NCBI GenBank assembly: GCA_050951325.1
Contig: JBMNIW010000005.1
Span: forward strand, 224,001-288,000
From: Clostridia bacterium
GTDB lineage: Bacteria > Bacillota > Clostridia > UBA1212 > DUPL01
Length of the DNA: 64,000 nucleotides
Reading direction: 5' to 3'
Position 1 is the first letter of the stretch. Each line of letters starts with the position of its first letter. Below, piece after piece: positions 20,264 to 23,910 of the stretch. The position numbers and the translations under genes were made by a program. Under the pieces are notes generated by a model. That model had not been told where the DNA came from. It was given only the letters and a program-made list of their open reading frames with translations, and did no database searches.

Positions 20264-20365
20264 ATCTTCTCCTCCATAAAATTTATTTCAAGATATTACA
20301 TTTTTTAATGCTAAACAAATGAATTTTACTACATATATGGAATTTCATCAAGAAAATTTGGTTAA

Positions 20366-20443
20366 TTGCAAAAGTAAATGCAAAACTGAAGAAGTAAATG
20401 TAATTTGCAAAAGTAAATGCAAACGAGAAGAAGTAAATGCAAC
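20366..20443 (+). repeat. 39-bp tandem duplication containing four AAGTAAATG cores
   Basis: TTGCAAAAGTAAATGCAAAACTGAAGAAGTAAATGTAAT / TTGCAAAAGTAAATGCAAACGAGAAGAAGTAAATGCAAC; cores at 20372, 20392, 20411, 20431. Confidence 0.9.
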
Positions 20444-20641
20444 GATTTTTCTGCCCCATACAGAGAAATCGTTGCGTTTTTTGCTGGTTTAATCTATAAT
20501 TTAAAATAAAAGGTTCAGTTAGAGGATGTTTTTGGGCATGACAAACTAGCCTTGCATAATTTCTTAATTTTTACGAAGAAGTAAATGCAAAGCTTTTTGA
20601 CTCATTTTGCCCGCCAGGAGTTATCAATGTTTAGGATATGA

Positions 20642-21949
20642 TTATTTTATTAAAACTGGATGCAAGATTACATCCTTTGCTGGTATTTCAACCAGACCGA
20701 GTTTTGCGGCGATTTCATCGCCATATATTGCTTTGAAGACAGCAATTGGCGATTTATCCCCAAGTCTCGGTCTGGGGTATGAGTTTATATGATTAGTAAT
20801 CAGGTCTGTTTTTTCCCGATTAAGTCCGGAAAAAGACGACCCCTTAGACAAAATGCAACGGAAAAACTCATGGTTCCTTTCACATTTTGCCTTTTGGTTT
20901 GAGTTCATAGGATCACAGTAAAACACTCTCGACTGAGCTTCCCCTGTTTCTCTATTAATCTCAATGGTGGTTGGATCGGTGAACTCGGAGCCCCTGTCAG
21001 TGAGAATGACAGGGAACAGTTTTGAGAATTCCGAATCTGTCAGCTTTGACCTGAGTTCATCAAATATCTCCGCTACTGAGCGAGCTGTATTGGTACTGCG
21101 GTAGAAGTATAGCTGCAAATCGCAGTTTTTGAAAAGCAAGGACAGCACAACTGCCGATTCGCCCTTTCTTCCCATAACAGTATCCATTTCAACAACGTTG
21201 ACATAACCGCTTTGTTCCAGATAAGCCTGGAAATCGGAATATGTCCTGCCTTTGAAGCACTGCTTGTCCACTTTTACGGCAGGTCCGGCTTTTTTTCTTA
21301 ACCTTCTCTGGACGGTACGTGACAAATCGGTAGGTTTGGCTGACAAAAGCCCCATATGTAAGTATTTGTATACACTTCTTTCGGAAAGGTTCAAAACATC
21401 TTTTTGCTCCGTGCATATCAAGTGTATTGATTGTCCTTTTTTCAATCTTGGAGAAATGATATCGTCAATATGCTTCAAATGCTCACCGGTTACCGAAATG
21501 CCCTGTCTGGATTCCGAGAGCTTTTTCCTGTACTCTTTGTGCGCTTTTTCGGCATCATACAAGTATTTGGACAGTGGACATCTTGGTTTCTTTTCACAGC
21601 TATTGCAAACATATGGCGGAGAATCATATCTGGTACATATATCTTCCTCGAACTCACTGCAAAAATCATTACATCCACCGCAGTACTTGCAATTCTTGTG
21701 GTGTATTGCCTCGCATGAAGGCTTTTTGCATTTACCGGCGATTTTGCAGTCAAAACGCTTTTTACACGCATTTTTGGTTTGCATGGTTGAAACCTCTTTT
21801 CGACTGATGAAAACACGATGTTTTTTTACTTCTCTCATAATGGTGCTTGCCGGTCGTGACAAATCCACAGCTATTTCAGCAAACGATTTACCTTCCTTAA
21901 GCATTTTTTGAATGGTGATCCTGTCTTCCAATGTCAAATGTTTACCCAT
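20642..21949 (-). CDS. IS30-family transposase with a Cys-rich insertion
   Basis: HLTLEDRITI...STIMREVK HTH; VEMDTV / LTDRGSEF / QKAKCERNHE DDE triad; AGGAGG SD. Confidence 0.9.
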   Translation of the reverse strand: MGKHLTLEDRITIQKMLKEGKSFAEIAVDLSRPASTIMREVKKHRVFISRKEVSTMQTKNACKKRFDCKIAGKCKKPSCEAIHHKNCKYCGGCNDFCSEFEEDICTRYDSPPYVCNSCEKKPRCPLSKYLYDAEKAHKEYRKKLSESRQGISVTGEHLKHIDDIISPRLKKGQSIHLICTEQKDVLNLSERSVYKYLHMGLLSAKPTDLSRTVQRRLRKKAGPAVKVDKQCFKGRTYSDFQAYLEQSGYVNVVEMDTVMGRKGESAVVLSLLFKNCDLQLYFYRSTNTARSVAEIFDELRSKLTDSEFSKLFPVILTDRGSEFTDPTTIEINRETGEAQSRVFYCDPMNSNQKAKCERNHEFFRCILSKGSSFSGLNREKTDLITNHINSYPRPRLGDKSPIAVFKAIYGDEIAAKLGLVEIPAKDVILHPVLIK

Positions 21950-21999
21950 AAATGCCTCCTTCTACTCCTGGACAGGCAACAAGGAAATAATTGCACATA

Positions 22000-22140
22000 A
22001 TTAGGAAAAAGTAAACGCAATTTTTATGGGTACCCTCCGGTACCCATAAAGGCATTTGGTATTAGGAAAAAGTAAATGCAACTCTAGCCATAAGTTATTA
22101 GAATGTGAGTATTTGCATCTTCGGAAGAAGTAAATGCAAC
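22000..22140 (+). repeat. Three spaced GGAARAAGTAAAYGCAA repeats with unique spacers
   Basis: ATTAGGAAAAAGTAAACGCAA (22000), ATTAGGAAAAAGTAAATGCAA (22061), CGGAAGAAGTAAATGCAAC (22122); the first spacer holds a perfect 12-bp hairpin. Confidence 0.85.
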
Positions 22141-22260
22141 TGTATCTTTGCATTTAAAAATTCAAATGACCTTTAATGAATATATTTTAAATAAACCAGT
22201 TTACATTTGGCCAATGCTTGTATATAATATGAGTAAAATAATACTAGGAGGTAATGCATA

Positions 22261-22878
22261 ATGAGGAAACTTATTGTTTTTATGCTTGTTATGGTCGTAG
22301 TCCTGTCAATGACGCTAATACCCTCCTCCGCTGAGGATGATTTGGTCGTCGATTTGGGTGCTATCGGCGGTGTCGAAAATTATGGTCCCCATGGCTATCC
22401 TGACCAAAAACTGCTAATGTTTGGTTATGGAACTGTTGTAAAACTAGGTAATTTCGATTTGTCAAAATATGATGCTATGGAAATTACATATGCAACAGAC
22501 CTCGAATTCCAAGCAATGAAAGAGGGAATGAAACATGTGGCTATTCTTGGTATCAAATCAGCAGAATCTCCAATTTTCGGATATGCAAACCTGGATTTCA
22601 ATGAAGAGAACTCCCTTGGCTGGGCTCCATTGACAGATGCGGATCCAGAAGCTAATCCTGACGGAGTCAACTGGGACAAAGGCGAAAGAAAGTGTGTAAT
22701 TGACCTTTCCGAGCAGAACTACAGTGGAGATGTTTACTTGATGTGCTACAACTCTATAGGTAACGAAACCCTTGTTGTAGGAATCAAGCTCATTGCAAAA
22801 CAAGAAAACCCAGCTACTGGCGACATCGGTATTGTAGGTATGGCTATCGTTTCTACTTTTGTGCAGCTCGGAATGTGA
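22261..22878 (+). CDS. Secreted NPXTG-type surface protein, C-terminus apparently truncated by IS1634
   Basis: Signal peptide; ENPATGD followed by a short hydrophobic stretch that ends without a basic tail. Confidence 0.65.
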   Translation: MRKLIVFMLVMVVVLSMTLIPSSAEDDLVVDLGAIGGVENYGPHGYPDQKLLMFGYGTVVKLGNFDLSKYDAMEITYATDLEFQAMKEGMKHVAILGIKSAESPIFGYANLDFNEENSLGWAPLTDADPEANPDGVNWDKGERKCVIDLSEQNYSGDVYLMCYNSIGNETLVVGIKLIAKQENPATGDIGIVGMAIVSTFVQLGM

Positions 22879-23868
22879 TTCAAGTCTATCCGATAGTTTG
22901 ACACTTGCTCACATATCCGATTTTCAGAAAAGCTCATAATATGAGCTTTTTTTATATATTTTTTGTCAAATTTCCCTAGTTAGCTATTGCGTAATGTCTC
23001 GTAACGTGATATAATATCAGGTATTGGAGGTGTCATTATGGCTATTAGAGTATCAATATCTAAATCAAAAAATGCCAAGTCATACTATCTGATAGAAGAT
23101 GTTGTGAAAAATGGAAAGAGAACAACGCAGATAAGAGAAAAACTTGGCACTCATGAGGAACTGCTTAAAGAACTTAACGGACAAGATCCGTATGAATGGG
23201 CTAAGAAATACGCCGAGGAACTAAATAGAAAAGAAAAAGAAAACAAACAGGAAAAGAATATTATCGTTAAGTATTCCCCCACCAAGCAAATTATGAAGAA
23301 TAAACAGAATACATTTAATGGCGGTTACCTGTTCTTGCAGAAAATCTATTATGAACTGGGTTTGCATAAGATTTGCGATGAAATATCTGAAAAATACAAG
23401 TTTGAATATGACTTGAACTCAATACTCTCGAGACTACTATACAGTAGAATAATATACCCTTCCTCAAAACTATCTACGTATAAATTATCAAAAAGATTTT
23501 TTGAGCAGCCCAATTTTGACTTGCATCATATATACCGGGCCTTAAGTGTTTTGGCGGAAGAAAATGATTTCATACAAGCCACAATCTATGAGAACAGTAA
23601 AAAAATATGCAATAGAAATACCAAAATACTATACTACGACTGTACAAACTATTATTTTGAAATTGATTACGAGGAAGATGACAAGAGGTATGGTTATGGG
23701 AAGGATCATAAGCCAAATCCCATAGTGCAAATGGGACTGTTCATGGACGGAAGCGGCATCCCTCTTGCTTTTAGCATCAATAGAGGTAATGCCAATGAAC
23801 AAACAACAATGGTACCACTGGAAGAAAAGATACTATCTGACTTTAATCTGGCAAAATTTATTGTTTGT
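22860..23868 (+). mobile_element. IS1634-family element remnant (left part only; left boundary uncertain, ~22858-22890)
   Basis: Interrupts the sorting signal upstream; carries a hairpin, terminator, TTGCGT-17-TATAAT promoter (22987-23015) and a transposase 5' half. Confidence 0.65.
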
Positions 23869-23910
23869 AAGCTTATGTTGTATTGTAGTTTGAAGTGTAA
23901 TATAATTTAG
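23038..23910 (+). pseudogene. IS1634-family transposase, C-terminally truncated
   Basis: SRIIYPSSKL, LYYDCTNYYFE, YGYGKDHKPNPIVQMGLFMDGSGIPLAF, GNANEQ; family-like sequence stops at KFIVC, just before the expected second catalytic Asp (290 aa, about half length). Confidence 0.85.
23878..23906 (+). promoter_or_regulatory. Sigma-A promoter for the coaD-like/lemA operon
   Basis: TTGTAT-17 nt-TATAAT immediately after the IS truncation point. Confidence 0.6.

Follow-up and report, generated by a model that had tools for sequence, protein, structure and literature searches.

Reiterated Terminal Motifs and Long Non-Coding Ends in a Cysteine-Rich Clade of IS30-Type Insertion Sequences

Introduction

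The IS30 family is the textbook case of an insertion sequence (IS) with simple ends, having a single 26-bp repeat at each end and a stagger of 2 bp, and its members matter in practice, as with ISApl1 and mcr-1. Here we describe an IS30-type element in a 64,000-nucleotide stretch of the genome of a Clostridia bacterium (assembly GCA_050951325.1, contig JBMNIW010000005.1, positions 224,001 to 288,000), hereafter referred to as the window. Positions 20360-22171 of the window are one copy of an active-looking IS from a cysteine-rich IS30 clade. A short motif, which forms part of each terminal repeat, is reiterated inside both ends of the element, and the copies are probably binding sites for the transposase. 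A first reading of the letters (the original prediction) had pointed to these same-strand repeats as a possible undescribed system. The clade is a widespread and apparently undescribed IS30 variant with ordinary inverted ends, and not a new kind of system.

The Element and Its Sites

The element measures 1812 bp, is oriented with its transposase on the minus strand, and contains the repeat arrays. Its limits were set at 20360-22171 because homology between copies starts and stops exactly at the inverted repeat, as seen against two other copies (L003 and L004) and in the junction alignments of six copies. The contigs of public runs have breakpoints at 20358/20359 and 22171/22174, beyond which they run into other flanks. 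The span proposed at first, 20366-22152, was slightly too narrow. The ends are imperfect terminal inverted repeats of 25 bp, at 20360-20384 (GGTTAATTGCAAAAGTAAATGCAAA) for the 3' end and 22147-22171 for the 5' end, with 18 of 25 positions complementary (72%), and the 5' repeat is conserved in the homologous loci L005, L008/L019 and L009. The canonical inverted ends that the original prediction implied to be missing are therefore present, the repeated motif being their inner half. Between them lies a single long open reading frame (ORF), the transposase gene of 435 amino acids (20642-21949, minus strand), and the other ORFs, of 50-219 amino acids, overlap this gene or the arrays.

The motif AAGTAAAYG has eight matches in the window, all on the plus strand and within 1.8 kb, at 20372, 20392, 20411, 20431, 20579, 22009, 22070 and 22128. 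The mean expected by chance is 1.76 (standard deviation 1.27), and none of 100 shuffles reaches eight. This recount agrees with the original prediction in number, strand and position, as does the repeat analysis in its details. The first 17 nucleotides of 20427-20454 and 22124-22151 are identical (repeat family D3), the left-hand copies form a real 39-bp tandem unit with two alternating variants (20361-20399 and 20400-20438, 87% identity, repeat family D4), and the right-hand copies stand 61 and 58 bp apart with unique spacers (repeat family D1). A ninth copy, partial and inverted (TTTGCATTTA at 22147-22156) and overlooked in the original prediction, lies in the 5' terminal repeat and is the only inverted one. 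The 12-bp core TTGCATTTACTT is thus the inner half of both 25-bp terminal inverted repeats, reiterated inside both ends, with five sites on the 3' side and four on the 5' side by sequence.

On the transposase strand, the 5' end reads as the terminal repeat with its motif toward the tip, then site s1 (22128-22139), which is reversed with respect to the terminal copy 8 bp away so that the pair reads TAAATGCAA-N-TTGCATTTA, then site s2 (22070-22081), a leader hairpin (22023-22050), site s3 (22009-22020, AAGTAAACGCAA) and the gene. The leader hairpin has 12-nucleotide arms that are 100% complementary (-22.5 kcal/mol, z -4.5). Past the stop codon come a stretch complementary to the 5' untranslated region (UTR), the solo site s4 (20579-20590), a strong hairpin and four tandem sites. 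Site s4 lies about 50 nucleotides past the stop codon, as the 5' arm of a small palindrome or hairpin (about 20551-20594; fold -15.5 kcal/mol, z -4.3). The tandem sites form the 3'-terminal array (20372-20442), with a spacing of 19-20 bp: s5 at 20431-20442, s6 at 20411-20422, s7 at 20392-20403 and s8 at 20372-20383. They alternate between two variants, TTGCATTTACTTTTGCAA and TTGCATTTACTTCTTC, and the last of them, s8, makes up the inner half of the 3' terminal repeat. All eight sites, s1 to s8, are assigned to the minus strand.

The genome that holds the window (3.08 Mb in 12 contigs) contains six copies of the transposase gene, four at 99-100% protein identity, one at 77% and one broken in two. 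Three of the six copies, L004, L005 and L006, lie between exact 13-bp target duplications, and none was found at the window copy, L002 or L003; the original prediction had proposed fixing the ends and any duplication by alignment to an empty-site genome, and the six-copy comparison supplied both. The 16-mer TTGCRTTTACTTYTKC has 38 exact matches in the genome, 37 of them within the six element copies and the remaining one in a decayed, transposase-less remnant on another contig. The repeats are therefore part of the mobile unit, since the arrays accompany the element at its six loci, and the alternative that they are host sequence is ruled out, as the motif is confined to the element. The same genome gave no empty site, only two occupied paralogous flanks, and the contigs of four runs, which drop rare forms, contained no end-to-end (circle) joint.

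Two other loci deserve mention as observations in their own right. A transposase-less remnant of about 330 bp (L104, 2289-2616, on G000 contig 8) still has its 5' terminal repeat, s1 and 3' hairpin, together with a 3' terminal repeat that has collapsed, and is bracketed by a decayed direct repeat of 12-13 bp. In L002 (833-1293), the 3' array is interrupted just after the terminal 25 bp by a fragment of a different element that codes for the N-terminal, zinc-binding part of an IS91-family transposase (PF14319, E 3.2e-22).

The Transposase

The protein belongs to the IS30 family of transposases and, within it, to a distinct clade rich in cysteine, as the original prediction had suggested. It is composed of an N-terminal helix-turn-helix (HTH), a module with 12 cysteines (residues 62-124), a second helical region and a putative DDE core. 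HTH_38 (PF13936, residues 2-44, E 5.9e-15) is its sole Pfam match; the Pfam rve domain was not found in it, and no Pfam family covers the cysteine module. The NCBIfam IS30 model NF033563 is passed at residues 129-393 with 95.2 bits against a cut-off of 80, which is a small margin. Identity to the transposases of IS1470 and a Lactobacillus IS30-type element is only 22-24%. Relatives are abundant, with 4424 proteins at E <= 1e-20 among 7999 candidates scored. The 120 relatives listed are 43-98% identical to it and, where named, are called "IS30 family transposase" and come from Clostridia.

In 66 aligned members, 11 cysteines of residues 62-124 are invariant and the twelfth is at least 90% conserved. 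The region includes a CxxCxxCxxxC run, sits between the two helical DNA-binding regions, and possibly binds a metal, as zinc or an iron-sulfur cluster. D256, D318 and E357 are invariant in the same sequences and fall within the integrase-like core of the AlphaFold model, making them the candidate DDE triad. The model has a confidence score (pLDDT) of 85.3, with 63-83 in the cysteine region. By structure comparison, its core resembles retroviral integrases and the IstA protein of IS21 (PDB 8b4h and 8q4d), and a PDB sequence search matched no solved structure to the transposase.

Conservation of the Ends among Relatives

Homologs at E <= 1e-30 were found in 10 of 40 related genomes, the window's own counted. 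A wider scan of species-representative genomes gave 567 relatives, from which 80 loci were kept, mostly from Lachnospiraceae, Oscillospiraceae and other Clostridia. The elements of the clade are 1.7-1.9 kb long, with non-coding ends of 160-355 nucleotides (5') and 250-335 nucleotides (3'). The plan of the ends is kept at 37-77% transposase identity, with a terminal site at each end, one to three flipped 5' sites, one site just past the stop codon, two to six tandem 3' sites, and duplications of 13-16 bp.

Six homologs of 53-77% identity (L005, L008, L009, L010, L011 and L013) carry the same core on the sense strand in both gene flanks, and L008 and L009 have the inverted copy at the 5' tip as well. 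The counterpart of s1 lies 33-34 nucleotides from the 5' tip in L001 (the window copy), L005, L009, L025, L035, L040, L052 and L055, and many homologs have a site 44-86 nucleotides past the stop codon. Across relatives, sites recur 13 and 33-34 nucleotides from the 5' tip; counted from the 3' tip, the recurrent positions are -24, -44 and -63 to -95. The spacings are about 20 or 30 bp. A hairpin with a T-run occupies the position of the leader hairpin in most homologs. A copy on a Clostridium beijerinckii plasmid (40.6% identity) carries six sites in tandem at its 3' end and shows a 13-bp duplication.

To obtain counts, 18 elements with defined ends were each searched with the core of their own terminal repeat, with shuffles as a control. 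Internal sense copies numbered 24 at the 5' end (shuffles 2.2) and 34 at the 3' end (shuffles 2.9), whereas antisense copies stayed at chance level, with 2 at the 5' end (shuffles 1.3) and 4 at the 3' end (shuffles 2.9). The totals are 58 sense against 6 antisense copies, a roughly 11-fold sense enrichment, in counts that are not independent events because the elements are related to each other. The core differs by clade (TGCATTTAC, TGCAGTTAC, TGGAAnTTA and others), and the copies inside one element agree. The original prediction had proposed to ask whether the arrays co-vary with the protein; relatives do carry arrays, in which the layout is kept and the motif sequence changes by clade.

A 13-16-nucleotide direct repeat (mostly 13 or 14) abuts termini resembling inverted repeats at 25 of 54 loci. 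Eight of the 54 have no repeat of at least 9 nucleotides, and the rest have internal motif repeats only or incomplete ends.

One further member of the cysteine-rich clade, at 36% identity, was met on a scaffold labelled Bacteriophage sp. (L102, MT835772.1, 14247-18491). It has same-strand copies of GGAATTTACT on both gene flanks, and its gene is separated from the first 3' site by about 280 extra nucleotides, which may hold a small ORF. Nothing at this locus marks it as a phage end.

Probable Multi-Site Ends and a Candidate Operator

We consider it probable that the repeats are transposase-binding sites which form asymmetric multi-site ends, with the promoter-proximal site as an operator. As part of both terminal inverted repeats, the core serves the transposase as a DNA signal at the least. 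Each copy of the core would be a DNA site for the N-terminal DNA-binding region of the transposase. The 3' end has four tandem sites about 20 bp apart, all facing the tip, and one more site just past the stop codon; with spacings of 20 and 30 bp, the 3' sites would share one face of the helix. The 5' end has a terminal site toward the tip, followed by three sites facing the opposite way, and these flipped sites make the two ends structurally unequal. Several protomers may occupy each end and assemble into an asymmetric synaptic complex of higher order. The unequal ends could recruit more than two protomers and assign donor and acceptor in the first one-strand step of copy-out-paste-in transposition, and insertion would follow with a 13-14-bp stagger.

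The transposase may also regulate its own synthesis through the flipped 5' sites, which is possible because they lie over and upstream of its putative promoter. That promoter was read by eye as a -35 box TTTACT at 22015-22010, a 17-nucleotide spacer, and TGC with AATTAT at 21995-21987. Site s3 overlaps the -35 box. In the window copy and in L005 and L019, which share its layout, a TGn-extended -10-like box follows 16-18 nucleotides downstream of s3 or its counterpart. Since s3 stands just upstream of such a box, we propose that it may act as the operator.

Several points weigh against this interpretation. A consensus promoter scan found no promoter for the transposase, and so the operator idea depends on the promoter as read by eye. 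The plan is not uniform among relatives: a blind 10-mer scan of 60 loci gave 15 in which the top word had at least three downstream copies on one strand, and other loci gave palindromic words (TCTTGCAAGA and TTTTGCAAAA), mixed orientations and AT-rich noise. In the multi-site ends of Mu, Tn7 and IS21, the internal sites are inverted between the two ends, and here the 5' internal sites are not inverted relative to the 3' ones. The window copy lacks a target duplication, and contigs from RNA libraries cover the 3' array, so that a role in RNA is possible there. The original prediction had already listed transposase binding among its options; the repeats have turned out to be element-borne, conserved and clade-specific, which fits, and as regards the binding itself it is conservation that speaks for the proposed function.

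RNA Structures and a Possible RNA Role for the Repeats

The family appears to make use of RNA structure in another way. Immediately before the ribosome-binding site, the 5'-UTR contains a stretch (21964-21977, minus strand, GCCTGTCCAGGAGT) that can pair with another right after the stop codon (20609-20621, minus strand, ACTCCTGGCGGGC), giving a panhandle-like helix, with arms in the same places in L005, L009, L014, L016 and L019-L097. One arm ends about 12-35 nucleotides before the start codon, and the other begins 3-21 nucleotides after the stop. The ungapped helix score is at least 10 in 46 of 66 loci, the mean is 10.9 against 6.6 for shuffles, and 17 loci score above every shuffle. The helix sequence varies widely among clades. 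Its internal mismatches comprise 28 G·T/T·G, 9 A·C/C·A and 10 others, and with identical rows removed by eye there are 25 G·T/T·G against 9 A·C/C·A. The series CCGGAT:ATCCGG, CCGGAT:ATTCGG and CCGAAT:ATTCGG follows a path from G-C through G·U to A-U, which points to pairing in the sense RNA. The helix looks like a 5'-3' panhandle of the mRNA that would enclose the whole ORF.

A second structure, at 20435-20486, has one arm overlapping s5. The better fold is that of the plus strand, antisense to the transposase (-26.4 kcal/mol, z -6.3), where UUUUUUG comes next; the minus strand gives -19.9 kcal/mol (z -4.2). With its T-run facing into the element from the 3' end, this hairpin would stop transcription that enters the element from outside. 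A consensus terminator scan missed it.

The repeats could themselves act in RNA, either as sense-strand elements of the mRNA UTRs or through a small antisense RNA that is read from the 3' array, is ended by the hairpin at 20435-20486, and pairs with the 5' copies. All internal copies are on the sense strand, the 5'-UTR to post-stop pairing provides a precedent within the family, and the plus strand of the 3' array runs into the strong hairpin and T-run just described. The public runs, which were used as contigs, carry no transcript starts, ends or strand, and an uncovered part in them is not evidence. Within that scope, the RNA-library contigs cover 20359-20621, which favours an RNA role. Contigs of the RNA libraries X1 and X2 also cover the gene (20697-21965 and 20697-22018) and leave 22046-22187 uncovered, a part that is covered by a run of unknown kind; this suggests, weakly, that s1 and s2 lie outside the transcript. 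The 5' copies, moreover, lie over or upstream of the putative promoter. The same core stands in both terminal inverted repeats, one of them inverted, which makes it a DNA signal at the least, and the spacings of about 20 and 30 bp suit the helical phasing of DNA. A consensus scan of the array found no antisense promoter, and an Rfam scan matched no family, with a sole match to tmRNA at 13.3 bits against a threshold of 47. The suggestion in the original prediction that these are repeats of a processed non-coding RNA thus found no backing, and we regard an RNA role for the repeats as improbable.

Neutral Repeats, Target Immunity and Host Factors

The internal copies might also be neutral by-products: the terminal repeat may have been multiplied by slippage or duplication, or the copies may be former ends in decay. 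In favour of this, the 3' array consists of a 39-bp unit duplicated in tandem (87% identity), s6 is almost a second copy of the terminal repeat, and the number of array sites differs within one genome, with two in L006 and four in L001. Such a history would hardly keep the position, orientation and number of the sites at 37-60% transposase identity while the core itself changes, nor would it leave antisense copies at chance and sense copies enriched about 11-fold. The 5' sites are uniquely spaced and are not tandem duplications. We therefore find a purely neutral origin unlikely.

The sites might instead serve target immunity against self-insertion, or the binding of a host factor. End sequences give target immunity in Mu, Tn7 and Tn3, and in this genome none of the six element copies is inserted in another copy. 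However, known immunity systems use a partner ATPase and this element has one gene, and one array has been hit by a different element, the IS91-type fragment in L002. A host regulon is unlikely because host DNA outside the element is practically free of the motif. We accordingly give little weight to either function, and the assembly of transposase on multi-site ends remains the preferred explanation.

Comparison with Known Systems

The closest known relatives, IS30, ISApl1 and IS1470, share with this element a single transposase gene, an N-terminal HTH_38, a DDE core (putative here) and the NF033563 match. Sub-terminal sequences reportedly modulate IS30 transposition, as Szabo et al. are said to have found in 2008. 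The family has terminal inverted repeats of about 25 bp, as here, where they measure 25 bp at the exact element limits; for IS30 itself, the available text of PMC9333248 gives 26 bp. In contrast, the target duplication is typically 2 bp in the family, according to the accessible portions of PMC5821093 and PMC9333248, so that 2-3 bp would be expected in place of the exact 13 bp at three of the six copies. The 12-cysteine insert and the long non-coding ends likewise set this clade apart from classical IS30 elements; IS1470 and the Lactobacillus IS30-type element, taken as controls, have short ends without arrays. The copy-out-paste-in route assumed above is that of IS30, for which the first step is described as asymmetric in the available parts of PMC5821093, PMC9333248 and PMC3299598.

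Long duplications have a precedent in the IS30-type element IS1630 of Mycoplasma fermentans, with 16, 23, 25 and 26 bp given in the accessible text of PMC3317919. They are long as here, but variable in length, whereas those of the present clade are nearly fixed at 13-14 bp. By the title of a 1999 report by Calcutt et al., the IS1630 duplications are said to be inverted repeats of the target. IS1630 is 1.2-1.4 kb long, and the portion of PMC3317919 at hand reports no arrays in it.

In its ends, the element resembles more distant systems. Sleeping Beauty-type Tc1/mariner elements have inverted repeat/direct repeat (IR/DR) ends with at least two transposase sites each, which are thought to order synapsis before cleavage, according to the available part of PMC5224488. 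These are, unlike the present elements, eukaryotic and cut-and-paste, with symmetric ends and both inner sites inverted between the ends. By sequence, the element shares several motif copies per end and unequal ends with multi-site bacterial elements. IS21 (IstA), Mu, Tn7 and Tn402 have several copies of the terminal motif inside each end, and IS21 combines such ends with the IstA core that is structurally similar to the transposase model. All four differ from the present element in having an AAA+ partner gene, where here one long ORF stands without a second gene, in having internal sites inverted between ends, where here all are on the transposase sense strand, and in having a much shorter target duplication.

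IS30-type transposases have also been put to unusual use in the 'IScream' phages of gut Clostridia, as described in the accessible text of PMC12823448. A link to these phages was considered and rejected, as no tie to the clade was found. The phage Saumur, a possible example, has an outward-facing terminal IS30-type transposase of 347 amino acids without the cysteine module, and this protein matches only residues 188-393 of the query, at 29.8% identity.

Taken together, and tentatively, this IS30-type clade of anaerobic Firmicutes might build a Mu- or IS21-like transpososome on asymmetric ends without a partner ATPase, and combine it with a fixed 13-14-bp stagger, a 12-cysteine metal module (possibly iron-sulfur) and an mRNA closed by pairing of its 5' and post-stop regions; we hold this full combination to be possible and rather doubtful. 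The full-text literature on IS30, which was searched with subscription papers and ISfinder outside its scope, gave no description of a clade with such ends, stagger and module.

By sequence comparison, conservation across a large clade extends to the architecture of the ends, to the target stagger and to the protein module. The asymmetric multi-site ends, the 13-14-bp stagger, the cysteine module and the covarying 5'/3' mRNA helix would make the mechanism of the IS30 family less uniform than is assumed. The clade would offer a compact, single-protein system for studying the origin of end asymmetry and higher-order assembly. For annotation, the true element is about 1.8 kb and thus more than the gene alone, and more than 100 listed relatives at 43% identity or above are all annotated simply as "IS30 family transposase". 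The repeats break short-read assemblies, and many relatives are found on contigs of 1.6-2.5 kb.

Sequences Adjoining the Window Copy

The 690 bp that adjoin the 5' end of the IS (22172-22861, including a 205-amino-acid gene) recur beside L002/L100 at 95% identity. The window and L002 copies of the IS are 99.65% identical and occupy the same position within 1 nucleotide. The shared flank could reflect repeated insertion at one target, or a duplication after which the IS copies were homogenised.

In run X3, one contig connects window position 20359 directly to sequence found at about 23862, and therefore the IS lies within a strain-specific block of about 3.5 kb (20360-23862). This block also holds the 205-amino-acid, secreted-looking gene (22261-22878) and a truncated IS1634-family transposase (23038-23910), which matches NF033559 with 164.7 bits over profile positions 33-214 of 483.

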